From a virus (lineage: Duplodnaviria; Caudoviricetes), in the IMG/VR virus record IMGVR_UViG_3300027707_001276, positions 1 through 41,767 of that record: a stretch of 41,767 nt of DNA; one strand, written 5' to 3'. Position 1 is the stretch's first letter. Each line of letters starts with the position of its first letter. The translations under genes and the position numbers were made by a program. The notes below the pieces were generated by a model. The model searched no databases and was not told the origin of the DNA. It saw only the letters and a program-made list of their open reading frames with translations. Positions 10,665-35,711 of the stretch are shown piece after piece.

Positions 10665-10706
10665 AATGTTTTCCTTAAGTTATGTTCTACTACTTATTAT
10701 AGTAAT

Positions 10707-10815: not shown

Positions 10816-10821
10816 ACATAT

Positions 10822-10850: not shown

Positions 10851-10878
10851 GACTTTTGTAGTTAAATACTGTCAGATC

Positions 10879-11874
10879 ATGACACAAGACTTCACAAAAA
10901 TACCATTCGACAACATAATAAGATTTGGACAGCGTACCATGTTGCATCGCCCATTATTTTCTACCAGTTGGATTTTGGGTCGCTTCTGTAATTATAACTG
11001 TTCCTATTGTTGGCCCTATGCCCGTAGTGATAAGATGGATTATCAAACCTTAGAAGTATATAAGTCTACTATAAATGAGATAAAACGTCAAGCTCGTCAA
11101 AATGGATTTACTGAATTCCATTGGAGCTTCAGCGGCGGTGAGCCTACTGCTTATAAACAGTTGCCGGATTTGGTAAAACACCTAGACGAAACAGAAAGCA
11201 CATATCAGAGCATACACATGACTACCAATTTGTCGCCAGGATCAAAATGGTGGAACACATGGTGTAACAACACTGCTTTATTACAGCGTAGAAGTATCAC
11301 AGCATCATTCCATGATGAGTTTGCCAGGGAGCAAGAGTTCGGAGACAAGTGTCTACAGTTACAGTATGAGTTGGTCCATGTCACAGTCAACCAAGTTATG
11401 GTACCTGAAAAGTTCTACGAACTATATGAAAGGTTAGAACGTTTTCACAAACGCGGAATCCATGTAACTCTTAAACCTCAAAGTGATCCCACAGCCAGCG
11501 GCATTGTAGATGGATACACAGAAGAAATGATGCATTTGATGCAGACGGGTTTCCCTCAAAAGGTTAATGGAGAAGAGGTTTATCAGATTGCCTTATATGA
11601 TCACACTGGACAGGAATATCTTTTTGACCAAGCGGAAAGATTTAATTCTTTTGGTTTTAATAAATTTCAAGATTGGAGTTGCAATAGTGGATATCAAAGT
11701 GTTATAATAAGAGGTAATGAAGTAAAAAGAAGTTATAGTTGTCACGATGCACCACTAGGCACCTTAACTGACGGGTTTAGTTTAATATGTAATCCAAGAG
11801 TATGCGTTACACCTACATGTGTTAGTTCGGCAGATAGCAAAATACCCAAGAGAAAAATATTTTATGTTAGATAA
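10879..11874 (+). CDS. radical SAM protein with a C-terminal Cys-rich auxiliary domain
   Basis: CNYNCSYC, SGGEPT, TTN; C-terminal CNSG...C...CVTPTC. Confidence 0.9.
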   Translation: MTQDFTKIPFDNIIRFGQRTMLHRPLFSTSWILGRFCNYNCSYCWPYARSDKMDYQTLEVYKSTINEIKRQARQNGFTEFHWSFSGGEPTAYKQLPDLVKHLDETESTYQSIHMTTNLSPGSKWWNTWCNNTALLQRRSITASFHDEFAREQEFGDKCLQLQYELVHVTVNQVMVPEKFYELYERLERFHKRGIHVTLKPQSDPTASGIVDGYTEEMMHLMQTGFPQKVNGEEVYQIALYDHTGQEYLFDQAERFNSFGFNKFQDWSCNSGYQSVIIRGNEVKRSYSCHDAPLGTLTDGFSLICNPRVCVTPTCVSSADSKIPKRKIFYVR

Positions 11875-12643
11875 TTTGTTACCTTTTAAAATAGACAATC
11901 ATCTAAAGAAAAATAAATTTATTCCTGGTGGTTCTTTTGACAGGGCAGGAGAGTGGTCGGGTGCAGATACGCAGTTGCTCTATAGGAAAAATTTAAAAAC
12001 ACAACCGCAAGATTGGTATTACAGGACCAATTCTGTAAAATATACCAATAATTCTAAAGGATACAGAACCGCAGAATTTGAGAAAATAAACTGGGCGGAA
12101 TCAATAGTTGTATTTGGATGTTCTTATGTGTATGGCGTGGGCGTGGATGATGCTCATACATTGAGTCAGCAGCTAGAAAATATCATGCAGATACCGGTTA
12201 TAAATCTAGGACAGGGCGGAACGTCAGTAAATTTTAATCTACATAATTCCGTAATTTTAGCTGACGGATACCCAACACCAAAAGCGGTAATAATGGGTTG
12301 GCCAGGCTATGATAGATGTGTGTCTTACAGAAGAACCGGCGTAGAAAATTATGGGTCTTGGAATTTGGAGAAAAATAATTATATGGATCTATGGACCAAA
12401 GACAAATATAATCCGCGAGCCAATGCAGTTATGGCCCAGAAAATTTTTCAACTGATATGGAAAAATCGAACAGCGACATATGAATACTCCTTTGATGCAG
12501 CTACCTCAGAATTGTTCAGTTTCGATAGAACCTTTGACAACATACACGCCATTGACTTTGCTAGAGATCTACTTCATCCCGGACCTTCTGCTATTAGAAA
12601 AACTGCGGAAATTATATCTGTTTCTTTGCAAAATAAAATTTAA
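11864..12643 (+). CDS. SGNH/GDSL hydrolase-like protein
   Basis: FGCSYVYG, NLGQGG, DLLHPG motifs; ATG at 11864. Confidence 0.65.
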   Translation: MLDNLLPFKIDNHLKKNKFIPGGSFDRAGEWSGADTQLLYRKNLKTQPQDWYYRTNSVKYTNNSKGYRTAEFEKINWAESIVVFGCSYVYGVGVDDAHTLSQQLENIMQIPVINLGQGGTSVNFNLHNSVILADGYPTPKAVIMGWPGYDRCVSYRRTGVENYGSWNLEKNNYMDLWTKDKYNPRANAVMAQKIFQLIWKNRTATYEYSFDAATSELFSFDRTFDNIHAIDFARDLLHPGPSAIRKTAEIISVSLQNKI

Positions 12644-12646
12644 ACT

Positions 12647-13327
12647 ATGCAAAACATTATAAAAACAGTCAGCAAAACTCCTGATAGACTTGTTGCATTT
12701 GGATGTTCGTTCACATATGGCGACGCATTGCCTGATACATGGCCCGTACACGAACTAGGACAAACGTCAAGCAAGTTTGCTTGGCCGGCTGTGTTGGGGA
12801 AACTTTTAGAAGTGGAGGTTGACAATCGTGGCCGCTCGGGTGCTAGCAACTTTGAGATACTATTTAACATTTTAAATTATGATTTTAAATCAACAGATGT
12901 GGTGATTATTATGTGGTCATTTCCTGATAGAGATATGTTATTCAATAAGTCTCACTTTTGGCAAGAGCAACAGCATACTTCTGTAGGTGCATGGAATGAT
13001 TCCGAACTAGAAAAGCACTGGGCTATGGCACACAGTTCGGCCGACTTGGCTATAAAGTCTTGGTTTTACATACATCATGCTAGCTTATTTTTAGAGTCAC
13101 AGGGCATTAAATTTATTAATGTGTTTGCTTCCTACAGAGCATTAAGGAAGTTTAAACCAAAATTTTTAAAAGTTAATTTCTTTAATATTGAACCGGGAAT
13201 AAAAGATTTTGTTTTTCCAAACGGAGTGTATAGAGATTATGCCCTAGATAACCAACATCCTGGAGTAAACGGTCACGAGTTTATTGCTAACAGAATAAAA
13301 GGATTTATGGATGCAAATAGATACTGA
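12647..13327 (+). CDS. SGNH/GDSL hydrolase-like protein
   Basis: FGCSFTYG, NRGRSGASN, DNQHPG motifs. Confidence 0.7.
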   Translation: MQNIIKTVSKTPDRLVAFGCSFTYGDALPDTWPVHELGQTSSKFAWPAVLGKLLEVEVDNRGRSGASNFEILFNILNYDFKSTDVVIIMWSFPDRDMLFNKSHFWQEQQHTSVGAWNDSELEKHWAMAHSSADLAIKSWFYIHHASLFLESQGIKFINVFASYRALRKFKPKFLKVNFFNIEPGIKDFVFPNGVYRDYALDNQHPGVNGHEFIANRIKGFMDANRY

Positions 13328-13907
13328 ACACTTACACTACTGGATGCAGGCTGTTAGGCAAAGTTCAGATCCCATGCGTACCATGGATGCCTTTTGGTCA
13401 GGGCAACTTAACAGCAAAGAGTGGTTAATAACTAATCTTCGAAAACATGTAAACAAGATTGTTAGCATAGATATTCACGGCGGCTGGGTTGGGGTATTGG
13501 CCAGTATGTTATTTCAAAGCGAAATCAATGTCAAAAATATTCGTAGTATTGACATTGATCCTACATGCGAGCCTATTGCTACAATGATGAATAAACGAGA
13601 AGAAATGGCTGGTAGATTTCGAGCAGTCACTTCAGACATGTGCGCTATTCGCAGTGACGCTGATGTTGTTATTAATACTAGTTGTGAACATATTACACAA
13701 GATCAATATGATCTATGGTTAAACGGAATGCCACACAATAGTCTTATTGTGGTGCAAAGCAATAACTATGACATTCCCGAACACATTAGAACTGCAGGCA
13801 GTTTAGAAGAATTTAAAGAACAGAGTAACCTTACAGTGATATGGGCAGGCGAATTAGAACTGCCCTTGTACACTCGGTACATGATTATAGGAAAAATAAA
13901 TGTATAA
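13311..13907 (+). CDS. class I SAM-dependent methyltransferase
   Basis: IHGGWVG, SIDID, DVVINTSCEH. Confidence 0.75.
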   Translation: MQIDTEHLHYWMQAVRQSSDPMRTMDAFWSGQLNSKEWLITNLRKHVNKIVSIDIHGGWVGVLASMLFQSEINVKNIRSIDIDPTCEPIATMMNKREEMAGRFRAVTSDMCAIRSDADVVINTSCEHITQDQYDLWLNGMPHNSLIVVQSNNYDIPEHIRTAGSLEEFKEQSNLTVIWAGELELPLYTRYMIIGKINV

Positions 13908-14898
13908 CCTAGAAGAAATCAAAGCAGTACACTTAGAAATTACATCCAAGTGCCAGGCCAAATGTCCTATGTGCTCTCGAAATCTTCAAGGAGGCCAGGT
14001 AAATCCTATGATTGAATTAGAGGAAATAACCTTAGAACAATTTAAAAATTGGTTTCCTATAGAATTTATAACACAGTTAGACAGTCTATATATGTGTGGT
14101 AACCTCGGTGATCCAGTAATAGCTAAAGATACATTGGAAATATATCAATATCTTAGAGAAAATAATCCAAATATATCATTGCGTATGCACACAAATGGCA
14201 GCGCAAGAAACACACGATGGTGGCAAGAACTAGCTAATCTTAAAGTTGGGGTTATCTTTGGCATTGATGGGCTCGTAGATACTCACTCAGTCTATAGGAT
14301 AAACACAGATTGGAACAAAATTATTGAGAATGCCAAAGCATTCATATCCAACGGTGGTTGGGCCCGTTGGGACATGATTGTATTCAAACATAACGAGCAT
14401 CAAGAAGATGAGTGTAGGCAGCTGAGCAGTAAGATTGGCTTTGCAGAATTTACTGTAAAACACACTAGCAGATTCCGTGACGGGCAATTAAATGTACTCG
14501 ATGATCAAGGAAAAACTATTAACATCCTGTATCCTACCACTCTAAGTCATTCGATGATTGACAAAGTTAAAAAAGCCAAAGAAGATACATTGCCTATAAT
14601 TCATTGCAAGGTACAGAAAGGTAATCAAATATATGTCAGCGCCACCGGAACAGTAACTCCGTGTTGCTGGACCGATATGGAGCATGATATCCCAATGTCT
14701 ATTTCAAGAATTGATTATCTAGACAAAATCGGAGTATGGCCAAATTTGAAAAACGCCACCATACAAGATATTTTTGATTCCGGTTATTTTGATAAGATTG
14801 AACAAGCATGGAGTACGTGTGGACTCAAGGCCTGTTCCAAGCAGTGTGGATCGTTTGACAGAATGAATGCCCAATGGGCTGAAAGGTCTAAAACATGA
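13900..14898 (+). CDS. radical SAM protein with a C-terminal SPASM/twitch-like domain
   Basis: CQAKCPMC, CGNLGDP, HTNG; C-terminal C...GTVTPCC...CSKQC. Confidence 0.9.
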   Translation: MYNLEEIKAVHLEITSKCQAKCPMCSRNLQGGQVNPMIELEEITLEQFKNWFPIEFITQLDSLYMCGNLGDPVIAKDTLEIYQYLRENNPNISLRMHTNGSARNTRWWQELANLKVGVIFGIDGLVDTHSVYRINTDWNKIIENAKAFISNGGWARWDMIVFKHNEHQEDECRQLSSKIGFAEFTVKHTSRFRDGQLNVLDDQGKTINILYPTTLSHSMIDKVKKAKEDTLPIIHCKVQKGNQIYVSATGTVTPCCWTDMEHDIPMSISRIDYLDKIGVWPNLKNATIQDIFDSGYFDKIEQAWSTCGLKACSKQCGSFDRMNAQWAERSKT

Positions 14899-16163
14899 CA
14901 ATGCCCTGGTGTCCAATACCGTGGAGTCACATTGCTGTAAAGAGTAACGGAGCACTACGGATATGCTCGCATAGTCAAAGCGGTGGAAACAAGAATACCT
15001 TGCTTGAAAAGGATGGACGGGCTTTGAGAATAGATGATATCAGCAAAGCACTAAACTCTGATACATTAAAGGAGGTTCGATTAAAGTTTCTAAATAACGA
15101 ATGGCCAGAACAATGTCGTAGATGCAAGATTGAACAAGAGTCAGGCAAGCGTAGTCGCAACCAATGGGAAGCAACTATGTATGATTTTACCAGAGAAGAT
15201 GCAGAACATATTACACTACCAGATGGCGCTGTAACTGAGCAGCGTATATTTTCTATGGATTTAAGATTAGGTAACAAGTGTAACCTACAATGTGTTATGT
15301 GTCATCCCGGTGAAAGTAATCAATGGTATAAAATTCAAGAACAGATCACCGGTTCTAAAATATTCATGATTGATGATGTTACTTACAGCACAGATGGACA
15401 TGATCACTTTGAGTGGGTTGATCAGGAAGAATATTATCAACTGCTTACCGAAAATGCAAAATATCTGCAGAAAATCAAGTTTGGCGGCGGCGAGCCTTGG
15501 CTGGTTAAACAGCACCTAACTCTTCTAAATAATCTATTAGAGCAAGGACTTGCCAAAAACATCGAACTTGAATACAGTATCAATGTAACCGTCGTGCCGC
15601 AGGATTTCTTACGCACTATTGATAAATTTAAATTTGTCAAACTATGCTGTTCGGTTGATGGATACGGGGAAGTTAATGAAGCAATCCGTTATCCTACTAA
15701 GTGGTCAGTGATTGAAAAGAATCTAGACTTCTTAGATACCGGGCCTCCAAATTCAGCAGTCTTTACTAGTACCACGGTGTCGATCTTAAATATAGAACAC
15801 TTTGTTACATGGATGCAATGGTTAGAGAGCAAGCAGTTTAAAAAGATTAATACTGAAACATTCTCAGGAGTAGTAAGTCATCCAGTAATGAATCCCAAAT
15901 ATTTAAATCTACGATTAATGACTAACGAACAACATACAAGAATGTTCATGCATCTAAAGAGCCAAACCGCTGACACGGCAATGTTAGATAAGTTAACGCA
16001 ATGGGAGATGTATTCGAAGAAATTGCCTATGACAGAATCAGAGATTATTCAAGGTAGAAAAGACCTAAAAGACTTCTTTGAAAAGATGTCAAAAATACAA
16101 GGCAAAGATTGGAGAGCAATCTTCCCTATGTGCTACCGGATGATAGAAGAATGGAACGAGTAA
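14895..16163 (+). CDS. radical SAM protein with an N-terminal twitch-like domain
   Basis: CPIPW...RIC...CRRC, then DLRLGNKCNLQCVMC, GGGEP. Confidence 0.9.
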   Translation: MTMPWCPIPWSHIAVKSNGALRICSHSQSGGNKNTLLEKDGRALRIDDISKALNSDTLKEVRLKFLNNEWPEQCRRCKIEQESGKRSRNQWEATMYDFTREDAEHITLPDGAVTEQRIFSMDLRLGNKCNLQCVMCHPGESNQWYKIQEQITGSKIFMIDDVTYSTDGHDHFEWVDQEEYYQLLTENAKYLQKIKFGGGEPWLVKQHLTLLNNLLEQGLAKNIELEYSINVTVVPQDFLRTIDKFKFVKLCCSVDGYGEVNEAIRYPTKWSVIEKNLDFLDTGPPNSAVFTSTTVSILNIEHFVTWMQWLESKQFKKINTETFSGVVSHPVMNPKYLNLRLMTNEQHTRMFMHLKSQTADTAMLDKLTQWEMYSKKLPMTESEIIQGRKDLKDFFEKMSKIQGKDWRAIFPMCYRMIEEWNE

Positions 16164-17011
16164 GGGTTGCACCTGAATACGATGCTAAATGGCTAGAGGT
16201 TGAAAGGCCGCAACCTCTGTGCGATAACTATTTAGAATCGTTGTTCACTGATACAGCCACAGGGTTTAAAGGAATTAAACCTGACCATTCGCTAGCAATA
16301 CATGAACAGTTTAAAGAGAAGGCTACTAAATTTATATTTGGATCGACTCTAAATACACTACCTGGTATTGATGCATTTTCCTTTATAGGCATCACGGCAG
16401 GGTGTACTCAGTTTATTGATAACATTTATATGCAAGGCCCTGTACAGGTCTTGCGTGGTGATTATAGATATCACGAAAGATTGGGATTAGCGTATGTTAA
16501 AGATGTGGGCTCGCTGATTCCGAATATTCCATTAATTATAGCAATGCCGTTTCCTAGCATTGGTGCCCCACATCATGACATGGAGGAGATATTAAATGAA
16601 TGTTTGGTTAAAAAGATTAAAGTCCACATCGACAGTGCTTGGACCACCTGTTGTCGTGATATCGTATTTGATTACGGGCATCCTGCTATATCTAGTGTTG
16701 GTATCAGTCTTTCCAAAGGTCTAGGATTAGGTTGGAACCGAATTGGTCTGCGTTGGACCAAAGAACAAACTAGAGATAGCATATCGATAATGAATGATTT
16801 TCATATGCAAAACAGAATGCCAACTATGATAGCAAACTATGTATTAGACAATGTGTCTAGTGATTACTTGTGGACCAAGTATGGCGAGCTAAATGCAAAG
16901 ATATGCAATGATTTTGATCTCATTCCTTCTAAGGCCATACATATGGCATTTAAACAAGACAGAACATTCGTTGGTCTATCTACGTTAATTAGGCACTTGA
17001 ATAATGAGTAA
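16151..17011 (+). CDS. PLP-dependent enzyme, aminotransferase class I/II-like fold
   Basis: HIDSAW (DxA) and SLSKGLGLGWNRIG (PLP-lysine motif). Confidence 0.65.
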   Translation: MERVRVAPEYDAKWLEVERPQPLCDNYLESLFTDTATGFKGIKPDHSLAIHEQFKEKATKFIFGSTLNTLPGIDAFSFIGITAGCTQFIDNIYMQGPVQVLRGDYRYHERLGLAYVKDVGSLIPNIPLIIAMPFPSIGAPHHDMEEILNECLVKKIKVHIDSAWTTCCRDIVFDYGHPAISSVGISLSKGLGLGWNRIGLRWTKEQTRDSISIMNDFHMQNRMPTMIANYVLDNVSSDYLWTKYGELNAKICNDFDLIPSKAIHMAFKQDRTFVGLSTLIRHLNNE

Positions 17012-18323
17012 GACGTTTTGCCCTATTCCTTGGCTTCATCAAGCCGTGCGTACCAACGGCGATTGTAGAATTTGCTGTCAGGCAAACGTCACTCCTAATC
17101 AAGGAATCTTGAGAAAAGAAAATGGCGAGCCTTATAACGTATCCAGGGATAACATGTTTGATATCCAAAATGCTGATTTACTAAAACGTGTAAGACTGAA
17201 TATGATCAACGGTGAGTGGAACCCAGAATGCGGCCGTTGTAAGAGTGAAGAAGAAACCGGCATGATGGCTCGGCGTCCAAGCGAAGTAGAGAGGTGGGAA
17301 GATTCGTTTACATTCGATGATGCTGTAAATGCTACCAAGCCCGACGGTTCAATAGATCTTAAACCAATATACCTAGATTTACGTTTTGGAAATTTTTGTA
17401 ATTTAAAATGTCGAATGTGCGGTCCTACAGAAAGTCATTCGTGGTACGAGGAACACACCGATTATTTTTCTGAACAAGGGTTCAATGACACTCAGGGTTT
17501 TGTTAAACTTGTTCGCAATGATAAAGGTAGGTGGATTTCCGACGAGTACAACTGGCATGGCGAGGATTATTTTTGGAATAATTTAGAAGAAAATATGCCT
17601 AACTTGAGCAGAGTGTACATGGCCGGTGGCGAGCCGTTGTTGATAGAACGACACTATGAGTTTTTGCAAAGATGTATTGATCTAGGACATTCAAAAAATA
17701 TTGTTCTAGAATATAACACAAACTTGTCAGTGTTACCGGACCGAGCGTTATCTATGTGGCCATTTTTTAAAATGGTTCGTATCGGTGCAAGCATTGACGG
17801 CATGGAAGATATACTAGAATATCAACGTTATCCGTTCAAGTGGAATGTGGCTTTAAAGAATTTAAAAATATTAGATGACATTGCTGTTAATAATGATAAT
17901 ATTTTTCCCTCGATGAAATATACAGTTTCTGCCTATAATGTATTTCATTTGCCGAAGTTTATATGGTGGAAATTATTTGATAGCGGATTTAAGAAAATCA
18001 ACGATGTTGACCATAAACCGGTAATCGGATATCATATGGTGTACGAACCTTATAGAGTATGTACGCAGATGTTTCCAACATCTTTAAAAAATGAACTTAA
18101 ATTACATTATTCTGAATGGGAAGAAAAATTTAACAACTCCGATTTACCAGATAACATAAAAGAAACTGCAATTAATATTTTACAGTCTGTAATTACATTT
18201 ACTTTCTTAGAAGATAGATCAAACGAATTGTCTGAGTTTGTTAAATTTACAAAATATTTAGATCAAAAAAGAACACAGGATATTATGACAGTTGCTCCGG
18301 AATTAAGGAGTCTTTTTGAGTAA
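17004..18323 (+). CDS. radical SAM protein with an N-terminal twitch-like domain
   Basis: CPIPW...RICC...CGRC, then DLRFGNFCNLKCRMC, AGGEP, YNTN. Confidence 0.9.
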   Translation: MSKTFCPIPWLHQAVRTNGDCRICCQANVTPNQGILRKENGEPYNVSRDNMFDIQNADLLKRVRLNMINGEWNPECGRCKSEEETGMMARRPSEVERWEDSFTFDDAVNATKPDGSIDLKPIYLDLRFGNFCNLKCRMCGPTESHSWYEEHTDYFSEQGFNDTQGFVKLVRNDKGRWISDEYNWHGEDYFWNNLEENMPNLSRVYMAGGEPLLIERHYEFLQRCIDLGHSKNIVLEYNTNLSVLPDRALSMWPFFKMVRIGASIDGMEDILEYQRYPFKWNVALKNLKILDDIAVNNDNIFPSMKYTVSAYNVFHLPKFIWWKLFDSGFKKINDVDHKPVIGYHMVYEPYRVCTQMFPTSLKNELKLHYSEWEEKFNNSDLPDNIKETAINILQSVITFTFLEDRSNELSEFVKFTKYLDQKRTQDIMTVAPELRSLFE

Positions 18324-20095: not shown

Positions 20096-20118
20096 TAAAT
20101 ACCTCACAGCTATTTATA
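20095..20118. promoter_or_regulatory. divergent late-type promoter pair
   Basis: Plus TTAAATA at 20095-20101; minus TATAAATA at 20118-20111. Confidence 0.6.
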
Positions 20119-20119
20119 A

Positions 20120-27873: not shown

Positions 27874-28297
27874 ATAATTCCCCAAACGCAGATTTTAAGT
27901 CGGATGCTAATTTTTTATACACTTGGTCAATAGGGTGTGATCCTAGATTATCCCAATCAATCATTGTCATTTCATCTCCGTTAATTATAATATTACTCAA
28001 AGTCCAATCACCGTGATACACCGGTGTTGTTTCTAAAATTTGACTTAGACAAAAATTATGTATTTTCTCAACAAATTCCAAAGTATGTGGAAATTCACTT
28101 GCCGGTGTTCCTTCTACAACTTTAAATCGAATCCAGTTGTTTCCGTGTTCAAGTACATATCCCGGTAATAATAGATTTAAATCCTCTACATGTTTTTCAA
28201 TCCACACTGGATCTACATTATACCAAATCTTTTTATAACTATCCCCACAAAAATAGACAGCTCGTTGTTTTTCGTTGTTATATCGTATTAATTTCAC
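27863..28297 (-). CDS. minimal protein-kinase-like / phosphotransferase
   Basis: HGDWTLSNII...MIDWD catalytic motifs; 144 aa. Confidence 0.75.
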   Translation of the reverse strand: MKLIRYNNEKQRAVYFCGDSYKKIWYNVDPVWIEKHVEDLNLLLPGYVLEHGNNWIRFKVVEGTPASEFPHTLEFVEKIHNFCLSQILETTPVYHGDWTLSNIIINGDEMTMIDWDNLGSHPIDQVYKKLASDLKSAFGELYVF

Positions 28298-28313
28298 GGG
28301 AGTTTTAAATGCA

Positions 28314-28337
28314 ATAAATAGTTCACGAAGTATTTAA
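28314..28337. promoter_or_regulatory. divergent late-type promoter pair
   Basis: Plus ATAAATA at 28314-28320; minus TTAAATA at 28337-28331. Confidence 0.55.
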
Positions 28338-28364
28338 CTACTGTCTCGTTAGGAGAAACATATC

Positions 28365-29096
28365 TTGGAAGCCAGGGTAATCAAGGATTACGATCCGAAT
28401 AATCACAATATCACAGAAGATCTACTGTACGATACCAACGACTGGGATCTTGTTGAACTAAATTATGATGTTAACAGTGTTGATTTAAAAACCTGGTGGG
28501 ATGATCTAATAACTCAATTCCCAGAAACTATTTTTAATTTTAATAAGAACCACGATCTCTTAAATCTTGAAAAAAGCAAAGAGATGGTCGAGACTGGCTA
28601 TTGTGGTTATTACTGCGGCCCTATTGACGGTGTCACAGTAGCTTGGCCCATTGAACGATATGAACCATTGCCGCCGCCTGTTCAGTGTAATCCAGAACTA
28701 TACCCCGAAGTCAACATGGATTCATTTATAGATGATGCTGTTATTATGCCTAAGTTCTGTTTTGGATATTTTAAAGATCTCGTAGAAGCGTTGGGGAGAG
28801 ACGCATTTAGGCAAGTGGTAACATCCCGACATTATCCGGGTATGTATATTAAACAACACATTGACAGTAAAAGATTAAAATTACACATTCCTATAGAAAC
28901 ACCAGACGGTTCTTATTTTCATTTTGGTAAAGACCGAGATAGAAAATATCATATGAAATTGGGGAAAATATACATCCTCAATACAGGCGATTGGCACGGA
29001 ACATCTAATGACACCGAACAATGCCGAACTCATATTATTACCAGGATAACTAGAAATCATGTTTTGAAAGTTATCGAGATGTCTAACAATGATTGA
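28365..29096 (+). CDS. Asp/Asn beta-hydroxylase-like 2OG-Fe(II) oxygenase
   Basis: PGMYIKQHID, KLHIPI, LNTGDWHGTSN...RTHII; AGGAG RBS, TTG start. Confidence 0.8.
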   Translation: MEARVIKDYDPNNHNITEDLLYDTNDWDLVELNYDVNSVDLKTWWDDLITQFPETIFNFNKNHDLLNLEKSKEMVETGYCGYYCGPIDGVTVAWPIERYEPLPPPVQCNPELYPEVNMDSFIDDAVIMPKFCFGYFKDLVEALGRDAFRQVVTSRHYPGMYIKQHIDSKRLKLHIPIETPDGSYFHFGKDRDRKYHMKLGKIYILNTGDWHGTSNDTEQCRTHIITRITRNHVLKVIEMSNND

Positions 29097-29529
29097 TATT
29101 AAGGTTTATTCTAAAAAAAACTTTGAGGAGACTGGATTTACAGACACTAATGTAAGTCGGTTAACCGACAATTTTTTTATCTGTATTAATGCAACTGGAC
29201 ACGTACACAGTACACCACATTTTACAAAATCGTATCCTAGCATACTTAATTGTTATTTTGATGATGTTGAACACGATCAAGTTAAATTTGATACTATATT
29301 CAACATAGAATTTAATGCTCGTGCGTGTACACTAGAGCAAGCAGTTGAAATAAAAAATTTTATAGATGCTGTGCCCGACGAGTCTAAACTGCATATCTAT
29401 TGTTCTAAAGGCAAATCTAGAAGTCCTGCTGTGGCGAAATTTGTAGAAGAATATAAAAATAATAAAACCGTTGAATATGAAAATTATAATCAACACGTTT
29501 ACACTATTTTAAAATCCTTGATATGCTGA
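29089..29529 (+). CDS. Cys-based protein-tyrosine-phosphatase-like protein
   Basis: YCSKGKSRS (CX5R) and FDD acid loop. Confidence 0.75.
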   Translation: MIDIKVYSKKNFEETGFTDTNVSRLTDNFFICINATGHVHSTPHFTKSYPSILNCYFDDVEHDQVKFDTIFNIEFNARACTLEQAVEIKNFIDAVPDESKLHIYCSKGKSRSPAVAKFVEEYKNNKTVEYENYNQHVYTILKSLIC

Positions 29530-30119
29530 ATTTTAAAATAAAATTACTCGATAATGTAGTGTTCGACCAGAGCGAGCTAATCTCTTATTATGATAAAATT
29601 AACAAAGATTATCAACACATGAGATGGACCCCTGGAAATAATATTGATACAAAAACACATTCTGTAAATGAGATGTATAGTTGGGCTGTACAAAGCAATT
29701 TAAAAGATCCAACAAAGCCTTGTCCGCCGTATCATATAGACACCGGTGAAGAAATAAGCGAAGCAGATAATTGTCAAGTGCCTACGGAATTAATTTTTGG
29801 GTTCGGTAAAAAAATTATAGATACATTTCCTGAAGCAAGGCAATTAGGAATATCCGGTCACCCACCAAATACCAAAATAGAGTTGCATCCAGACAACGAT
29901 GAATTTTTAAAAATACACATACCTATAATAACCAATCCAGATGCATGGTTCTTGTATGAAGATGAAAAATTTAACATGCAGGTAGGTAATGCTTATCTAG
30001 TGAATACAACTATACTGCACGGCACATATAATCAAGGCTCAACTGATAGGATTCATATGATTTTTAAATTTCCGGCAGCACAGTTAGAAACAATCTTGAC
30101 AGGAATGTACAGTATATGA
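29523..30119 (+). CDS. Asp/Asn beta-hydroxylase-like 2OG-Fe(II) oxygenase
   Basis: LHPD, KIHIPI, VNTTILHGTYN...RIHMI. Confidence 0.82.
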   Translation: MLNFKIKLLDNVVFDQSELISYYDKINKDYQHMRWTPGNNIDTKTHSVNEMYSWAVQSNLKDPTKPCPPYHIDTGEEISEADNCQVPTELIFGFGKKIIDTFPEARQLGISGHPPNTKIELHPDNDEFLKIHIPIITNPDAWFLYEDEKFNMQVGNAYLVNTTILHGTYNQGSTDRIHMIFKFPAAQLETILTGMYSI

Positions 30120-30850
30120 TCCGAATACCACCAAGCGAACTGGATTTTAATATTTTAGATGTATCCGGAACACACATCCCCGGATATAAACCTTACATCA
30201 TTGAATTTCCTATTATCGATACTGGTTGGAAAATTAAACCGTGGTTTAAAATTGATCTTGAAAAATTAAGAAGCTGGTACGAGGACTTGGAAAAAAACTA
30301 CGGAGATTGGAAATTTATTCATGGCGAACATAAATGGATGTGGAAAGAAGATCCCAGCGATCCAACCGGTGAAACTGGACACAAATTTATGCCTGATAGT
30401 GCCTGGTATAATTTAAGTTGGAACCCACCCGATAGACAAGGAGTATTACCTCCAGAACGTAGTAATGCTAAACCGGAATTCAAAGATACAGAAGAAGATG
30501 TTCCTGAATTATTTCCGAGAGAGTGTTTCAACGGATACATGTTGGAAGTTGGGGAAGAAATTGCCAGCAAGGTACGAACCAAAAAAGTAATTGTTAGCAT
30601 ACTAACACCCGGAACAATACTGCACACACATCAAGACGCTCCAGATAAATTTCGATTTCATATTGCCTTGTATACCAATGACGATGCATATTGGATCATT
30701 GATGGTGAACGTATTCAGATTCCCGCAGATGGTTGGGTTTATCTCGTAAATACTTCGTACCCACACTCTTTATACAACGAAGGCAGTTCTCCAAGTATTA
30801 AGATTTATGGAAAAATCTATACCGAGGATGTACTTAAATTGGATCTATAA
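30116..30850 (+). CDS. Asp/Asn beta-hydroxylase-like 2OG-Fe(II) oxygenase
   Basis: PGTILHTHQD, RFHIAL, VNTSYPHSLYN. Confidence 0.8.
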   Translation: MIRIPPSELDFNILDVSGTHIPGYKPYIIEFPIIDTGWKIKPWFKIDLEKLRSWYEDLEKNYGDWKFIHGEHKWMWKEDPSDPTGETGHKFMPDSAWYNLSWNPPDRQGVLPPERSNAKPEFKDTEEDVPELFPRECFNGYMLEVGEEIASKVRTKKVIVSILTPGTILHTHQDAPDKFRFHIALYTNDDAYWIIDGERIQIPADGWVYLVNTSYPHSLYNEGSSPSIKIYGKIYTEDVLKLDL

Positions 30851-31395
30851 TGTTACTAGCAATTCTAATATCGTTGGCCTACTCAGTTTTTACTATTTTT
30901 ATATGTATAAAATATATACATCCGAGAGCGCATCAAGGAAAGAATTATCAAGAAACATTTAAAACAGTATTATATAGGTTTTGGTTTTGGTTTTCAACCG
31001 GTTTAAAATATAATGAATGGGCGGCAATACATCGCCATAATCACACACATGCTGAGCAAAAATGGAAAAATGGAAAGCCAGAGAGCAGAATTATTAGAAG
31101 CTTTATGTATAACCATCAGAAAGTTAATAAAGATTTAGTAGAAGAATACGGAATAGAAGTTCCGTATTCTTGGTTGGATAAGAATGTGTATTATCGATTT
31201 TCTTTTGTCGGGCCTATACTAAATTTATTGCTACTTTTCTTGTTATTAGGTTTTTGGGGAATTATTCCTTGGATAACTAATTTAGGCTGGACGATACTTT
31301 TAAAGTCTGAATCAGTTAACGCTGATGTTATACGCAACTATAGTGTTAATGAATTTTTAATTATCTTTAAAGAATCCGGAAATTATTATGAATAA
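30850..31395 (+). CDS. truncated or degenerate membrane fatty-acid desaturase-like protein
   Basis: HPRAH and WAAIHRHNH boxes plus transmembrane stretches; third His box absent. Confidence 0.6.
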   Translation: MLLAILISLAYSVFTIFICIKYIHPRAHQGKNYQETFKTVLYRFWFWFSTGLKYNEWAAIHRHNHTHAEQKWKNGKPESRIIRSFMYNHQKVNKDLVEEYGIEVPYSWLDKNVYYRFSFVGPILNLLLLFLLLGFWGIIPWITNLGWTILLKSESVNADVIRNYSVNEFLIIFKESGNYYE

Positions 31396-32917
31396 GAAAA
31401 AAATTATTATAGTAGGCGGCGGAACAGCAGGATGGATTAGTCTTGCCTATCTCGCAGCAACTACAGATGCCGAGTTAGTGATTATTCATAGTGATGAGGT
31501 TGATAGTTTAGGAGTCGGGGAAAGCACAACTCCTACAGTTAAACACGTGGCTGAGGCCTGCGGAATTGACGAAGCTACTTGGATGAAAGATGGCAAAGCC
31601 ACTTTTAAATATGGCATTGAGTTTTTAAATTTTAACAAGCCCGGAAGTCGTTGGTTACACACATTTGATGATTTACTTCCAGGACAATCCTTTCACACAC
31701 CAACCACAGAGTTTGGTAAAAATATTTTTAAGAAAGAAATTAGCAGTGTGGAATATTTCCTAACTAAACGTGCTCAGGGATTGGCCGGACATGACATTGA
31801 CTGGTTCAATGACAGTCAAGGTGGCTGCGAATTTTTACTTAAAAATAAACTAAGCCCGTACACACAACAAGGTAATGCTAATTTTAGCAAGTTTCCAGGT
31901 TATAGCTATCATATCAATGCTATGGAGTTTGGCAACAGTTTAAAAAGTCATACTCCGAAAGAAAGATACACAGAAATACGTGCTCACGTAGAAGGAGTTG
32001 AGTACGATGAAAACGGTGTAAAAAATATTGTACTTAAAGATGGCACAAAGATGTCCGCTGATTTGTATATTGATTGTACCGGGTTCCGTAGATTATTAAT
32101 CGGTGAGATGACCAAGTTTAATCCGTACGTCGGATTACTTAATAATGCTGCTATCTGGGGACCTGTAAAAGAACAAGTATACAGACCCAGTACTATAAGT
32201 GACGCCCAGCCGCACGGATGGATATGGGAAACGCCTACTTGGGGACAGATCGGATCCGGTTATGTTTTTAGTGATGATTTTATTACATTAGAGCAAGCAG
32301 AGGATCACATTAGAAATCATTGGAAGAAGAAAGGCATGGAGTGGAACCCTCTCAAGTCTGTCAAGTTTACCAGTGGACGATTAGAAAATATAGCAGTTAA
32401 AAATGTTGTTGTCAACGGTCTCGGTCAAAGCTTCATCGAACCACTCGAAGCCACAGCTATTATGATTACCTGTGTTACCATCCGTAATGTATCAAAGATG
32501 TTTAACAAGCACAGCGGGTGGAGCGAAAAAAGTAGTAGAATTTTAAGTACAGTGATGGAACGATTCCTTGAAGAAACCAAAGAGTTTGTGCTAGGTCATT
32601 ACACACTAACTGATCGAACAGAAACTGACTATTGGCGTGCCTACCACAACACAGATATTTTAGAATACATGGCCAAGATGATTGAAAAGAAATTAGAAAA
32701 AGAATGGGTCAGCCACGGTGAAACTAATCTCAATGGCTACAACTGGGCTAGTATGTTGATAGGCTACGATAAACCGTATCTTGGAAAATTGCCTAAGATA
32801 GAAGCATGGCAGATGGACAACTATGAATTTTATACCAAGCAACTAGTTGAAAATTATCGTCACCTATACAGTAAAAACTTATCTATCGAAGATAGATTAA
32901 AACGTATTCACTCTTAA
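31388..32917 (+). CDS. flavin-dependent (tryptophan halogenase family) halogenase
   Basis: GGGTAGW, GVGESTTP, ATFKYGI, DCTGF, GWIWETP, FIEPLEAT. Confidence 0.9.
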   Translation: MNKKKIIIVGGGTAGWISLAYLAATTDAELVIIHSDEVDSLGVGESTTPTVKHVAEACGIDEATWMKDGKATFKYGIEFLNFNKPGSRWLHTFDDLLPGQSFHTPTTEFGKNIFKKEISSVEYFLTKRAQGLAGHDIDWFNDSQGGCEFLLKNKLSPYTQQGNANFSKFPGYSYHINAMEFGNSLKSHTPKERYTEIRAHVEGVEYDENGVKNIVLKDGTKMSADLYIDCTGFRRLLIGEMTKFNPYVGLLNNAAIWGPVKEQVYRPSTISDAQPHGWIWETPTWGQIGSGYVFSDDFITLEQAEDHIRNHWKKKGMEWNPLKSVKFTSGRLENIAVKNVVVNGLGQSFIEPLEATAIMITCVTIRNVSKMFNKHSGWSEKSSRILSTVMERFLEETKEFVLGHYTLTDRTETDYWRAYHNTDILEYMAKMIEKKLEKEWVSHGETNLNGYNWASMLIGYDKPYLGKLPKIEAWQMDNYEFYTKQLVENYRHLYSKNLSIEDRLKRIHS

Positions 32918-33516
32918 AATCCAACACTCTTTTTTCGTTCTTCGAAATACCGATCAACGTTAAACTTCCAAATACTTTGTTTAGTGTTGAATAATTCAAA
33001 TTCTTCATAGGCCTTGATAAACACTCCTCGTTTGACTAGCATTGGTGCAATTTTTTGATCTATAAATTGACTCCTAGCAAAAGTTTCAGCATTGGGTGTA
33101 TTTGTACTTGCAAATATTTCAGCCTTGGGATCGTGAGACAATACGAACTCTATCTGCATTCCTATCATATAGCTTATCTGATATCCTAATTTAAAAATAT
33201 CTAAAGTTAATCCCTCTCCAAGCCGATATCCAGGAAGCTGTGCCCCTCTAAAAAATACACGCCAAGCATGCTCGTGTACTTCAGGAAGATGATGCACTCC
33301 TAGCAAATTCCAGATGCAATCGTTGTCAGTATCATACCCTATAAAATACTGACCGTAAGGCATTTTCATTTTGTCGAGTTTAATCGACTCAAAGCTGTCA
33401 TTATTTTTTAAACCTTTTTCTTTAAAATAATCGCAAAACTTTTGTAGAGAAGGATAGTCTGCTTCTTCTAGCAGTCTAAACACAAGGTTTGGTTTTCCAG
33501 GTACTGTTAGTTGCAT
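32914..33516 (-). CDS. hypothetical protein, possibly a GNAT-like fold
   Basis: Coupled to the adenylation gene; fold guess is weak. Confidence 0.6.
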   Translation of the reverse strand: MQLTVPGKPNLVFRLLEEADYPSLQKFCDYFKEKGLKNNDSFESIKLDKMKMPYGQYFIGYDTDNDCIWNLLGVHHLPEVHEHAWRVFFRGAQLPGYRLGEGLTLDIFKLGYQISYMIGMQIEFVLSHDPKAEIFASTNTPNAETFARSQFIDQKIAPMLVKRGVFIKAYEEFELFNTKQSIWKFNVDRYFEERKKSVGF

Positions 33517-34132
33517 TAATTTTTCTTCGTAAAAACTTCTTTGTTGTAATATCAAAAATATCGTTTGTATAATGACCGTTGATCACACATTCACCTTCAT
33601 CGGTAAACTCTACAGTATACCCGTCTTTAGGTGTGAAATCAAATGCTTCTGAGTTATATCCTACAAACACAGGTGGCGGCATCTCGGTCATACCATACCA
33701 ATTAGCCACTAGTTGGACTCCCCTTGCTCTAAATGAATCAATCATCTCTTGAGAGCACAGTCCGCTGCCCACTACCATGTAACGTACTGAACTCATGTCA
33801 AAGTTATCCCAACCTTTGGTTTTAGATAGTATTTCCCAGTGCCTAGGAACTAGACTAATATATGTAGGCTGATATTTATTAAACAACTTAATGTATGAAT
33901 ACGGATCAAAGTTGGCAGTAATTAGTTTTGCGCCCGCATACTGCGCCGGCATTGCTGTCACAGTATAGTGGGCAATAGTATTTCCTGGGAACACATCTAA
34001 CACCACATCATCTTTAGTAAGACCAATTTCGGTGATTGAGTTTAAAGCAAATCGTTTGATATCCTCCCAAGTATATGATATTTCCTTGGGTTCTTTAGTT
34101 GTTCCAGAAGTATGTAATACTAGACCGTTCAT
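33476..34132 (-). CDS. minimal adenylate-forming (AMP-binding, ANL superfamily) enzyme
   Basis: HTSGTTKEPK (A3 P-loop) and WYGMTE (A5); only 218 aa. Confidence 0.8.
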   Translation of the reverse strand: MNGLVLHTSGTTKEPKEISYTWEDIKRFALNSITEIGLTKDDVVLDVFPGNTIAHYTVTAMPAQYAGAKLITANFDPYSYIKLFNKYQPTYISLVPRHWEILSKTKGWDNFDMSSVRYMVVGSGLCSQEMIDSFRARGVQLVANWYGMTEMPPPVFVGYNSEAFDFTPKDGYTVEFTDEGECVINGHYTNDIFDITTKKFLRRKINATNSTWKTKPCV

Positions 34133-34962
34133 ATCAATGTTAATAGTAAATCAGTCATTTCTTGATTAATTCCTTTACCGCCGTGCCCAGTATATGTGCC
34201 ATCATCTTTTAAATAAACGTCACGACTAAAACAGTAATTCAAATCTTCAATATGTGATTCTCTATTAACACTAGGAATGTTGTTTGCTAGTACAACTCGG
34301 TCCTCATTGTAAAAAGACATCTCTACCAGCTTGATGTTCAAGCGGTGGCAGGTACTTCTTAAAAAGTTAATGTACATTGTAGATTCTTGAACATAGAAAT
34401 CTGTTTTTTCAAGTTCTTCAAAGGCTGCATAATGATGTGGCCATTGTTCTTTGCTGGCTTTAAACTTTGACTTATAAAGGAGATAGTTTCCGTTTGAATA
34501 GAAATTGTAAGCATCTGGAAAATGCTCAATTACCAGAACCTTAGGAAGATGCATGTTTGTTTGTAAGAAATTAAAAAACGACATGGCTTGTAGTTTAACT
34601 CCGTATATAGGCCCAGAAAAGTTTATGAAATCTAATCCCAATGATGCACTAACTTTTTCAGTAAACCGATCCTCTTCGTTGAGCCCACAGCCTAATGTAA
34701 AACTGCTGCCACCAAAGTATATGTAATCTCCCTTAACGTCTTGCACGTTTTTCTTCATTCGTAATCCCTGTTCATTAAAATTATAAATCACAGGAGTATT
34801 GTGGTACATCCAATTAGCCGGAATTTCAGTTTGATTTTTTTCAAACAGTGGTTTCGAGTCGCTGCCGTAAAAATCCCATACAGCATCATTTGGTAACGAT
34901 GTATGTTTAAAAGGCCAATAATCTTGAGCCAGGGGAATAATTGTATCTACAATCGGTTTCAT
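34129..34962 (-). CDS. SGNH-like protein, related to 11864-12643
   Basis: YNFNEQGLR, FGGSSFTLG, INFSG, SRD...GHGG. Confidence 0.6.
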   Translation of the reverse strand: MKPIVDTIIPLAQDYWPFKHTSLPNDAVWDFYGSDSKPLFEKNQTEIPANWMYHNTPVIYNFNEQGLRMKKNVQDVKGDYIYFGGSSFTLGCGLNEEDRFTEKVSASLGLDFINFSGPIYGVKLQAMSFFNFLQTNMHLPKVLVIEHFPDAYNFYSNGNYLLYKSKFKASKEQWPHHYAAFEELEKTDFYVQESTMYINFLRSTCHRLNIKLVEMSFYNEDRVVLANNIPSVNRESHIEDLNYCFSRDVYLKDDGTYTGHGGKGINQEMTDLLLTLI

Positions 34963-35711
34963 TCTATGTGCATCCTTGTGTTTAATAGTTTTGTTATAGC
35001 TTCCGGAGTTGGATTGTTGTGGAGCATCCACCAATCTTGATCGTCGTTGTTCCAAGCAGCGTGTAAGATGCCTGTGTTTAAGAGGTATGTTTTTCCTGCT
35101 TCTAATTTGTATTGACGGGTAATATCTGTTAGATCACTGTCGTAATTAAAAAAATGATCAGGCCCAATACTAGGAACTGTGTGCATCCTTATTAAGAATG
35201 GTTGTCCTGCACCTGTGTCTTTGTGAGTTCTTAGCCCACATCCCTTAGGGAATCTAACTAATCGCGCTACTTCAAAAACATCAGGACCTAGCAGATCATA
35301 ATATCTTTTCCAAAATCCGAACATGAATTTTTCAAGAGGTCGATTCCATGTGCTGTCAAAGCCTGATTCATAAACTTCAGGATATAGTTTTCTAGAAGCA
35401 ACACCTTTGAATGGCAGCACTCCTTCTCGTTGATAACTCCACTGAAGCATCCACTGTTCTGGCTGTTCTGTTTGTGTTCTTATCAGCTGGTCGTCTCGAG
35501 TCTTAATGAAGTATTCTAATCTTTCTTCATCGACATACTGATCAACATCCGACCATGCCCATACACAATCTTGATTTTTTATCTGTACTTCGTTGACCCA
35601 TTCCATAGCAGCGGCAATATCTACTGTGATGTTTAATTCGATTAAGTCCCAGTCATTGTTTTGTAAATCCCCAAAAGTGAGACCTGTTGGGTCTTTAATA
35701 AAACGAGCCAT
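34959..35711 (-). CDS. Asp/Asn beta-hydroxylase-like 2OG-Fe(II) oxygenase, paralog of 28365-29096
   Basis: NDWDLIELN shared with 28365; THKD, RMHTVP, LNTGILHAAWN. Confidence 0.8.
   Translation of the reverse strand: MARFIKDPTGLTFGDLQNNDWDLIELNITVDIAAAMEWVNEVQIKNQDCVWAWSDVDQYVDEERLEYFIKTRDDQLIRTQTEQPEQWMLQWSYQREGVLPFKGVASRKLYPEVYESGFDSTWNRPLEKFMFGFWKRYYDLLGPDVFEVARLVRFPKGCGLRTHKDTGAGQPFLIRMHTVPSIGPDHFFNYDSDLTDITRQYKLEAGKTYLLNTGILHAAWNNDDQDWWMLHNNPTPEAITKLLNTRMHIE

Follow-up and report, generated by a model that had tools for sequence, protein, structure and literature searches.

A block of about 25 kb in an uncultured lake virus, composed mostly of genes for modifying enzymes together with one predicted mini tail fibre, may serve the late editing of a glycan on the virus particle, most likely on tail or fibre parts; we give this reading an even chance of being right. 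The island occupies positions 10879–35711 of the 41,767-nt stretch of DNA that was analysed (the window), and islands of this type sit in freshwater jumbo phages of ~350 kb. The interval is filled by 29 intact ORFs in six transcription units, in line with the gene number and coordinates of a preliminary description, interrupted by no more than two gaps (24 and 67 nt) and with a GC content of 0.374, against 0.426 and 0.429 in the flanks. On its left lies a tRNA-like RNA (10707–10815, minus strand) with a CCA end, a T-arm, a long branched anticodon region and its own sigma70-like promoter; ARAGORN and Rfam do not detect it. On its right is a tail-fibre gene (35780–36988, minus strand; Mtd_N domain, E 6e-9) that is preceded by TAAATA at 37022–37027, encodes 14 N-x-S/T sites and has a C-terminal part that is swapped among close relatives. 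Twenty-eight of the 29 island proteins are predicted to lack a membrane helix or N-terminal hydrophobic stretch, which suggests that the chemistry is cytoplasmic; I24 is the only one with predicted membrane helices.

The first unit, on the plus strand, encodes I01, a radical SAM protein (10879–11874; PF04055); two SGNH-like proteins, I02 (11864–12643; motifs only) and I03 (12647–13327; GDSL at E 1e-3, under the cut-off); I04, methyltransferase-like by a motif and the annotation of its homologue in phage Mosig (13311–13907); I05, a radical SAM/SPASM protein (13900–14898); the N-Twitch radical SAM proteins I06 (14895–16163; NF033640, 294 bits), I08 (17004–18323; 355 bits) and I09 (18316–19575; 410 bits); and the PLP-enzyme-like I07 (16109–17011), a 29% homologue of which matches Aminotran_1_2 at E 5e-4. 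I10 (19493–20095, minus strand; 200 aa) forms a unit of its own. Unit 3, on the plus strand, is headed by I11 (20120–20881), a 253-aa protein without a family label that travels with I10, and continues with the AspH-like Fe/2OG oxygenase I12 (20866–21627; Pfam), the AspH-like I13 (21608–22267; 33% to a Mosig homologue labelled Asp_Arg_Hydrox), the radical SAM protein I14 (22257–23165) and the N-Twitch protein I15 (23158–24471; 205 bits). Unit 4, on the minus strand, runs from a small APH-like kinase, I19 (27863–28297), through I18 (26794–27885), whose AsnB-like ATP-pyrophosphatase motifs are a sequence reading only, to the Kelch-like propeller I17 (25568–26797; weak Pfam match) and its propeller-like paralogue I16 (24421–25578). 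Unit 5, on the plus strand, comprises the AspH-like I20 at its head (28365–29096), I22 (29523–30119) and I23 (30116–30850), all three with Pfam matches, a CX5R phosphatase-like protein known by its motif, I21 (29089–29529), a short desaturase-like protein, I24 (30850–31395), and a flavin-dependent, tryptophan-type halogenase, I25 (31388–32917). Unit 6, on the minus strand, is headed by the AspH-like I29 (34959–35711) and includes the SGNH-like I28 (34129–35055; partial motif), a short AMP-binding protein, I27 (33476–34132), and I26 (32914–33516), for which a language model gave the lead to a GNAT-like acyltransferase.

Much of the enzyme inventory that had been drawn up from the sequence withstood closer analysis. 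All seven radical SAM proteins have CxxxCxxC; six match PF04055 at or over its cut-off, and the seventh does so at E 3e-6. NF033640 (N_Twi_rSAM; curated cut-off 170 bits), a family defined by sequence, is passed at 205–410 bits by I06, I08, I09 and I15, whereas I01, I05 and I14 do not reach its cut-off. We know of no assayed member of this family, and our literature search returned nothing joining twitch domain, radical SAM and Bdellovibrio. The halogenase (Trp halogenase, E 4e-85) and the adenylation enzyme (AMP-binding, E 5e-20) also stand, the latter although it has 218 aa, a length equally short in relatives. Four of the six proposed AspH-like oxygenases pass the PF05118 cut-off, and I13 and I29 have HxD motifs only. 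The desaturase has a DesA-like match (E 8e-23), yet its two His boxes make it look truncated; the kinase match is at E 6e-4; and the SGNH, PLP, AsnB, methyltransferase, phosphatase and propeller labels are based on motifs or weak matches. The inventory had missed I10, I11 and I26.

Every unit had been said to start at a TAAATA motif. Indeed, TAAATA lies 10–44 nt upstream of all six unit heads and of none of the 23 internal genes (joint chance ~4e-7 when the upstream 60 nt are shuffled), at 10863–10868 (plus strand) for unit 1, 20111–20116 for I10, 20096–20101 for unit 3, 28331–28336 for unit 4, 28315–28320 for unit 5 and 35737–35742 for unit 6. The motif is depleted over the whole window (29 observed versus 53 expected). 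It leads 20 of the 21 virion unit heads of a 356-kb relative, G013, versus 4 of the 18 others, with virion and other labels taken from PHROGs and partly from a reading of gene size and position. G013 encodes a gp55-type late sigma factor (phrog_12791, E 2e-73; phrog_234, E 1e-24), which was not found on the window's own fragment. The tie between TAAATA and virion genes in G013, together with this sigma factor, suggests that the island units are likely expressed late, as had been supposed.

Late timing would also suit modification of DNA before packaging, and one alternative, which we consider very improbable, is that the island enzymes hypermodify phage DNA after replication. DNA modification by phage glycosyltransferases is known, and the window encodes QueD and G013 encodes QueE/FolE; the Que genes, however, lie outside the island. 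DNA hypermodification clusters are marked by a TET/JBP oxygenase, a base kinase and an amino acid:DNA transferase, none of which was matched in family searches at E 0.01. Moreover, wholesale exchange of ~30 enzymes between near-identical phages would be hard to square with transcribable DNA.

The argument for a glycan comes from relatives. The island is a hypervariable slot: its content is swapped between close relatives, and gene sets are reshuffled around a small stable core consisting of three radical SAM genes (I01, I05 and I09) and the methyltransferase-like I04. I01 is matched at 74–87% in the 79 phage relatives listed and at 45–56% in Bdellovibrionota, where the core is chromosomal: among 20 Bdellovibrionota loci picked by I01, 18 have I09 (43–48%) and 19 have I05. 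A GT2 gene or the short DxD gene introduced below occurs in 15 of these 20 loci, a raw count over 20 kb of each, and 5 of the 15 supplied the GT2 queries. Phage relatives have a cassette of fibre genes and transferase-like genes with a predicted GT-A fold, and the core and N-Twitch radical SAM genes commonly come after it. The short DxD transferase-like gene was located in 79 phage loci, not de-replicated; the cassette lies upstream in 47 of the 54 having enough upstream DNA, and an island-type radical SAM gene or I04 lies within 3 kb in 37 of the 50 with enough downstream DNA. The closest near-complete relative, G336, has fibre-type genes, the cassette, three N-Twitch-like genes and an I05-like gene in that order on one strand, and additionally a ThyX-side island. 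The cultured phage RsoM2USA has the cassette, an N-Twitch gene and an I04-like gene amid structural genes; the part of its published description that we consulted identifies gel bands only. Both nearest near-complete relatives have the cassette, which is absent from the window's 41.8-kb fragment.

The last gene of the cassette has an invariant D-x-D and a predicted GT-A fold (model pLDDT 85.5; best Z against GT-A-fold chains 11.3, rmsd 2.9 over 139 residues). The predicted fold is compatible with both glycosyl- and nucleotidyltransferases: HddC is the top Foldseek match, IspD-type enzymes tie in Z with glycosyltransferases, and a long paralogue matches Pfam GT2 at E 0.04 only. Relatives' loci add NDP-sugar epimerases, UDP-glucose dehydrogenase, a DegT aminotransferase and a nucleotidyltransferase. 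In relatives the core enzymes directly follow fibre and sugar-transferase-like genes, so that a sugar coat on the particle is the block's likely target, and the virion or glycan target suggested earlier is partly supported by this gene order and by the fibre-like gene within the island.

We propose that virion proteins would receive a sugar decoration from glycosyltransferase-like proteins encoded by the phage itself, and that the six likely late, TAAATA-led units would supply soluble enzymes that edit it. The fibre and transferase-like cassette, known from relatives, would build the glycan; the core radical SAM proteins and methyltransferase would make one conserved rare sugar or linkage; and swappable oxygenases, halogenase, SGNH, GNAT, kinase, adenylation and AsnB-like enzymes would add strain-specific groups to the glycan or to its acyl or aminoacyl substituents. 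Such a variable coat could alter adsorption or shield the particle. Counting against this reading are an island in which no glycosyltransferase was detected, a cassette known from relatives only, a GT-A fold shared with nucleotidyltransferases, the lack of tight co-variation with the adjacent fibre and the loose ties of I10 to the fibres (see below), transporters and desaturases in relatives, and TAAATA on non-virion units, which in G013 include those of SSB and DnaK. The halogenase and AspH families, moreover, act in their best-known cases on amino acids and peptides rather than on sugars (see also Iyer et al., 2010; PMC2938197, in part).

The island had been described as having no visible scaffold, yet I10 is predicted to be a trimeric fibre segment: its model matches the beta-helix of the Bdellovibrio fibre Bd1334 (Z 8.9, rmsd 2.4, 82 aligned) and also the T5 L-shaped fibre, and the predicted homotrimer scores 0.91 versus 0.00 for the best control, with pLDDT of at least 77 and contact agreement between runs of at least 85%. 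Among solved pairs 20 of 30 reach the mark used, and among single chains 1 of 23; the pass of I10 may reflect likeness to already solved trimers. No anchor domain was found in I10, its profile matched none of the fibres, it has no collar Pfam match, and it is present in only 2 of 36 I01 loci.

In an unlikely alternative, amino-acid side chains of virion proteins would be modified directly, by beta-hydroxylation, halogenation, acylation and phosphorylation, with I10 or an Asn-rich fibre serving as substrate and sugar playing a minor part. The six AspH-like oxygenases, halogenase, GNAT, kinase and phosphatase would suit side-chain chemistry, tail-collar and collagen-like substrates were proposed for AspH clusters in the part consulted of Iyer et al., 2010 (PMC2938197), the adjacent fibre offers its N-x-S/T sites, and I10 is accompanied by I11–I15 in G013-type islands. 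However, two other islands keep I13, I14 and I16–I18 without I10, the same right-hand oxygenase module adjoins unrelated fibre C-termini, and conservation is highest in the radical SAM core, which has transferase-like neighbours even in bacteria.

Cassette swapping that co-varies with the fibre gene had been expected; this expectation mostly fails. G013-type phages have 21 of the 29 island genes in common with the window, yet the C-terminal part of the fibre is at background similarity, and the correlation between island content and adjacent fibre (Mantel r 0.23, p 0.015; 18 loci) weakens to r 0.15 (p 0.135) after removal of two near-relatives.

Islands of this kind have already been described, as host recognition clusters (HRCs) and by Iyer et al. 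in 2010 and 2021, so the suggestion of an undescribed system was overstated for the type of island; it is fair for the chemistry, on which our literature search found no paper. HRCs of pelagi- and cyanomyophages are, in the sections consulted, large islands that lack synteny, adjoin tail-fibre genes and gain or lose radical SAM cassettes (Zaragoza-Solas et al., 2020; PMC7029224), and the island described here is likewise large, hypervariable and contains a tail-fibre gene. HRCs lie between VrlC and the neck gene gp14 and hold several glycosyltransferases, whereas this island lies between ThyX and the tRNA-like RNA on one side and a phosphoesterase on the other, and Pfam and NCBIfam detect no glycosyltransferase among its 29 genes, although many relatives have transferase-like genes next to the core. 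Unlike HRC phages, the source is a freshwater jumbo phage of ~350 kb, with an island rich in N-Twitch radical SAM proteins. A cultured HRC example, Pelagibacter phage Mosig EXVC030M (MT647606), has AspH, GNAT, desaturase, aminotransferase and radical SAM genes in its island, and I04-, I05- and I13-like genes.

The HRC transferases were read as host O-chain modifiers (PMC7029224, in part), and a corresponding view of sugar clusters was published for jumbo cyanophages (PMC7824862, in part). Remodelling of the host envelope (LPS, capsule or lipids), which would block competing phages or condition lysis, seems improbable to us here. KdsA (Kdo-8-P synthase) is encoded in the window, followed by a GT8-like glycosyltransferase, in a TAAATA-led unit outside the island (592–2206, minus strand); the core is chromosomal in Bdellovibrionota; and the slot of some relatives holds genes for TctC/DctP binding proteins, for porin-like proteins or for several membrane desaturases, which suggests envelope or lipid chemistry or else a mixed cargo. 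The absence of transporters thus holds for the window and not for the same locus in relatives. Superinfection exclusion would nonetheless fit poorly with late-type promoters, 28 of the 29 proteins lack membrane or export signals, the lone desaturase looks truncated, and the cassette is embedded behind fibre-type genes.

The AspH clusters and Syn9 dioxygenase-halogenase arrays of Iyer et al., 2010, themselves predictions, likewise pair oxygenases, including an AspH-family hydroxylase as here, with a tryptophan-type halogenase, an acetyltransferase and a fibre-like non-enzyme (PMC2938197, in part). They have a T4 collar domain where this island has the predicted beta-helix trimer I10, and a sulfotransferase/PAPS synthase, to which nothing in the window's island matched in Pfam; one relative's locus has a sulfotransferase, and the island here has seven radical SAM genes. 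Halogenase, oxygenases and adenylation enzyme also resemble secondary-metabolite tailoring (PMC2938197 and PMC7824862, both in part), and relatives' islands further contain genes of DHQ-synthase-like, amidinotransferase-like and B12 radical SAM type. Production of a diffusible small molecule or RiPP-like metabolite is nevertheless a doubtful explanation, with little probability in our view: Pfam and NCBIfam searches of the 29 proteins found no carrier protein, NRPS/PKS, peptidase or exporter; no RiPP precursor peptide, recognition element or protease was matched within the island, whose two gaps leave no room for a precursor; and the gene sets are reshuffled freely around the small core.

Campylobacter phage CP220 (FN667788) has a radical SAM, amidinotransferase and NDP-sugar transferase cluster, with five radical SAM and two transferase-domain genes near baseplate genes (23–29% to I05/I01); it differs in having no N-Twitch match, and none of the genes in the 20 kb shown is annotated as an oxygenase. 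In mycobacteriophage virion glycosylation, phage-encoded transferases decorate virion proteins, the outcome proposed here; there the glycan has reportedly been measured (Freeman et al., 2023) and needs a few transferases, whereas dozens of enzymes, radical SAM proteins and oxygenases, would edit the glycan that we propose.

A broader and more tentative idea, possible although we would not favour it, is that a widespread group of jumbo phages and some predatory Bdellovibrionota share a previously undescribed N-Twitch rare-sugar pathway acting on trimeric fibres, diversified by swappable late islands; 20–40 oxygenases, halogenases and acyl enzymes would then yield a strain-specific coat, the viral counterpart of O-antigen variation. 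By estimate from a scan of IMG/VR, ~1,300 stretches have I01 patterns and ~6,200 have those of the transferase-like gene (stretches, not species). If virion-glycan editing is correct, very common lake viruses would devote ~7% of their genome to chemically dressing their particles, host range and virion persistence would be read differently from jumbo-phage genomes, and a large radical SAM family would gain its first function. The fibre-transferase cassette and cultured phages make an old annotation puzzle testable on virions. Whatever the target, a wealth of unstudied radical SAM, Fe/2OG and halogenase enzymes is encoded in these islands.

The island (10879-35711) belongs to a window that is itself the entire 41,767-nt virus record, and its 29 ORFs match the gene number given in the preliminary description. 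They form six units on alternating strands, with internal gaps of just 24 and 67 nt, and have a GC content of 0.374 versus ~0.43 in the flanks. All seven radical SAM proteins have the expected motif and Pfam support, four of them belonging to the N-Twitch family (NF033640). Of the AspH-like genes, four score above the Pfam cut-off and another two show an HxD motif; the halogenase and AMP-binding genes are strong matches. Much of the original enzyme inventory stands, with the SGNH, PLP, AsnB, methyltransferase, phosphatase and propeller labels being motif-level assignments, and with the addition of a GNAT-like gene that had been overlooked. The desaturase-like gene (30850-31395) has two His boxes and lacks the third, and the AMP-binding protein (33476-34132) is about half the usual length, a length conserved in relatives. 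Structure-database profile searches with I07, I04, the propellers and a short DxD gene found in relatives gave no credible match; we regard haemagglutinin matches from solved-structure searches as chance. Viperin identity for the radical SAM proteins was rejected, as PADLOC matches are partial and cover only the radical SAM motif. I17 falls in unnamed viral clusters of the ESM Atlas. The reported lack of a precursor peptide was borne out, since no gap inside the island is free to hold one; among 12 small ORFs behind TAAATA, listed from 29 loci of relatives, no family is shared. Production of a small molecule is a rather improbable role for the island.

The TAAATA hexamer is depleted across the window, and is found ahead of all six unit heads and none of the 23 internal genes, confirming that every transcription unit lies behind this motif. 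G013, a 356-kb relative (96% complete), encodes capsid, sheath, terminase and gp55-type late sigma genes, as judged from an annotation scan of 142 of its 416 called ORFs. TAAATA is present at 20 of 21 virion unit heads in G013 versus 4 of 18 others; all 39 were selected by hand, and over the full set of 177 heads 70 have the motif. Because TAAATA leads both the island units and the virion units of a relative with a gp55-type sigma, we infer, with good support, that the island is expressed late, as had been proposed. Short, near-identical contigs from four lake RNA libraries cover parts of 8000-27999; we did not count these as expression because DNA carry-over is possible and there is no silent control.

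Outside the island, a minus-strand stretch at 592-5485 contains KdsA, a GT8-like gene, QueD, a 197-aa gene of Rossmann type and two genes of virion type. TAAATA lies ahead of KdsA, QueD and the gene at 4370-5485; the stretch is possibly a second late sugar unit. A search with KdsA did not reveal the host. The tRNA-like RNA at the left boundary (10707-10815, minus strand) has an acceptor stem, CCA, a T-arm and a long branched anticodon region, and sits behind a TTGAC-N18-TATACT site; its best 25 matches in the fetched loci are 87-100% identical, and its folding z-score is only -1.2. The minus-strand stretch at 38213-40970 contains PurN-like, second CX5R phosphatase-like and 2OG oxygenase genes, tRNA-Thr/Gly/Met, and genes that we read from sequence as IF-1-like and RNA-polymerase-omega-like.

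We surveyed the locus in relatives by scans with the adjacent fibre gene, the phosphoesterase and the radical SAM gene I01. In freshwater jumbo phages of ~350 kb, the slot from ThyX to the fibre/phosphoesterase is occupied by differing sets of enzymes. Two loci (L035 and L036) have phosphoesterases 97-98% identical to that of the window, yet different islands, and G013 (phosphoesterase 86%) has 21 of the 29 island genes in common, at 41-82% identity and in nearly the same order. Of the 79 I01 loci, 36 extend 9.5 kb or more downstream; in these (not de-replicated), the methyltransferase-like gene I04 is retained in 36, and the radical SAM genes I05 and I09 in 34 and 26, respectively. Annotated representatives of gene clusters from these loci and their flanks (150 of 1,001 clusters) include NDP-sugar epimerases, UDP-glucose dehydrogenase, DegT, a nucleotidyltransferase and a sulfotransferase, as well as B12 radical SAM proteins, TauD, desaturases, and the transporter components TctC and DctP, both of which were confirmed. 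Upstream of I01, three loci (L217, L226 and L205) share a conserved operon of nucleotidyltransferase, RuBisCO-like, kinase, DHQ-synthase-like, SDR and DxD genes, which suggests a cyclitol or heptose-type precursor. The island may also be mixed cargo, of which only the core (I01, I04, I05 and I09) serves one pathway; room for this reading is left by two relatives, G009 and G029, whose islands are rich in desaturase or transporter genes and lack radical SAM genes. The G009 island has about six membrane desaturase-like genes and a Rieske protein, and its fibre gene lies at the end near ThyX. The islands of G029 and G002 have porin-like and tripartite tricarboxylate transporter-like genes; these might provide 2-oxoglutarate or point to a host among the betaproteobacteria.

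With regard to the missing TRANSFERASES, five of six loci with I01 orthologues lie in Bdellovibrionales MAGs; the sixth, 81% identical and on a 6-kb contig, looks like a binned phage. I01 orthologues occur in 16 of 301 genomes of the Bdellovibrionota phylum. In 20 Bdellovibrionota I01 loci, I09 is present in 18 (43-48% identity), I05 in 19 and I04 in 11; by raw count, 15 of them also have a GT2 or a particular DxD gene. Five Bdellovibrionales MAGs (G031-G035) each have 6 to 18 NF033640 matches above the cut-off among the rows shown, often in arrays, and two loci (L153 and L157) have, after the core, large genes whose N-termini read as pilin-like.

This DxD gene is also found in phages, where it is the last gene of a conserved cassette. 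The cassette runs from fibre-type genes through a gene of 116 aa, two of 280 aa (GT8-like by sequence reading only, with no Pfam match) and one of 190 aa to a long and then a short DxD gene. The model of the DxD gene (pLDDT 85.5) adopts a GT-A fold, to which glycosyl- and nucleotidyltransferases match equally well. Eighty loci were fetched, of which one had no call; across the other 79, the cassette lies upstream of the DxD gene in 47 of 54 and fibre-type genes in 23 of 37, while an island-type radical SAM gene or I04 lies within 3 kb downstream in 37 of 50 (I01 itself in 16). G336, a 281-kb relative with several left-flank proteins 85-97% identical to those of the window, has fibre-type genes, the cassette, N-Twitch-like genes and an I05-like gene in succession at 130-150 kb, and a ThyX-side island at 230-264 kb. 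In G013 the cassette ends at ThyX, and in the cultured Ralstonia phage RsoM2USA the cassette, its genes labelled hypothetical in GenBank, lies among structural genes, with an N-Twitch gene between the two DxD genes, followed by an I04-like gene. Based on these arrangements, we infer that a virion operon of fibre and transferase genes has the island as an extension, now detached from it. One G336 locus (L358, 12404-14713) has the short DxD gene fused to ~540 extra residues. The cultured marine Vibrio phage K566 (OZ196521) has a single block with several N-Twitch-like genes, two GT8 genes and a GT4-like gene.

The preliminary description suggested checking for co-variation between island content and the adjacent fibre gene (35780-36988, minus strand), for which no cultured phage was matched. 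The outcome was largely negative. For the 18 loci left after de-replication of 21 that have the fibre and six or more genes downstream, island sharing is weakly correlated with similarity of the fibre C-terminus (Mantel r 0.23, p 0.015), a correlation that is not robust to removal of two near-relatives of G013 (r 0.15, p 0.135), and is not correlated with flank similarity. Moreover, the window and G013-type loci have 80-100% of fibre-proximal genes in common with fibre C-terminal similarity at background, so by sequence the adjacent fibre is not a specific partner of the island. Two loci, L010 and L011, have identical phosphoesterases and fibre N-termini but differ in fibre C-terminus and island; thus, breakpoints appear to fall within the fibre gene.

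The island had been described as having no visible scaffold, a view challenged by I10. This gene (19493-20095, minus strand) is a single-gene unit behind TAAATA with 69 homologues; it accompanies I11-I15 in G013-type islands and is rare among I01 loci (2 of 36). Its model (pLDDT 75) matches the beta-helix of the Bdellovibrio fibre Bd1334 (Z 8.9, rmsd 2.4, 82 aligned), the matched range being the helix rather than the binding tip (PMC10769870), and also matches Bd2439, the T5 L-shaped fibre and many phage fibres. I10 is predicted to form a homotrimer (score 0.91 versus 0.00 for the best control; contact agreement at least 85%; pLDDT at least 77), where 20 of 30 solved pairs and 1 of 23 single chains pass the score mark and like trimers have already been solved. 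I10 lacks an anchor domain, and its profile matched no fibre among 4,363 proteins, such that fold alone ties it to fibres; sequence homology to the adjacent fibre was rejected (BLAST E 0.025). We propose I10 as a candidate scaffold of the island. Fibre-like substrates have been proposed for AspH clusters in a study of phage dioxygenase-halogenase arrays (Iyer 2010; PMC2938197). Direct modification of side chains by the island enzymes, in place of a glycan, is unlikely in our estimation.

Twitch enzymes that have been characterised, BtrN among them, work on sugars or aminocyclitols. Our preferred reading, to which we give roughly even chances as a whole, is late editing of a virion glycan: late in infection, cassette transferases would place a glycan on virion proteins, while the core radical SAM enzymes and I04 would produce a conserved rare sugar or linkage, and swappable enzymes would attach variable groups. 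DNA modification is very improbable. Hypervariable clusters linked to fibre genes, in which glycosyltransferases and radical SAM cassettes occur, have been interpreted as modifiers of the host O-chain (Zaragoza-Solas 2020; PMC7029224). Remodelling of the host envelope by this island is, in our estimation, as unlikely as side-chain modification. Sugar and amino-acid modification clusters are described in jumbo cyanophages, in an article whose main text does not contain the term "radical SAM" (Iyer 2021; PMC7824862). The accessible part of the RsoM2USA paper gives virion bands with no mention of modification, and the record of the Pelagibacter phage Mosig EXVC030M holds an island similar to that of the window, which the available text of the Mosig announcement does not discuss. 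In the 40 kb of Mosig that we examined, neither an N-Twitch nor a DxD gene was found. Because published clusters are similar, the suggestion of an undescribed system needs to be narrowed: this kind of island is already known, and in our literature search we found no description of the core, cassette or product, although supplements could hold relevant gene tables.

We conclude that the island is real and widespread, and that it is probably late and probably concerned with surface-glycan chemistry. To the known kind of island, the window adds a fibre-like gene within the island, a quantified promoter test, a mostly negative test of fibre co-variation, and a link to a named cassette of a cultured phage.
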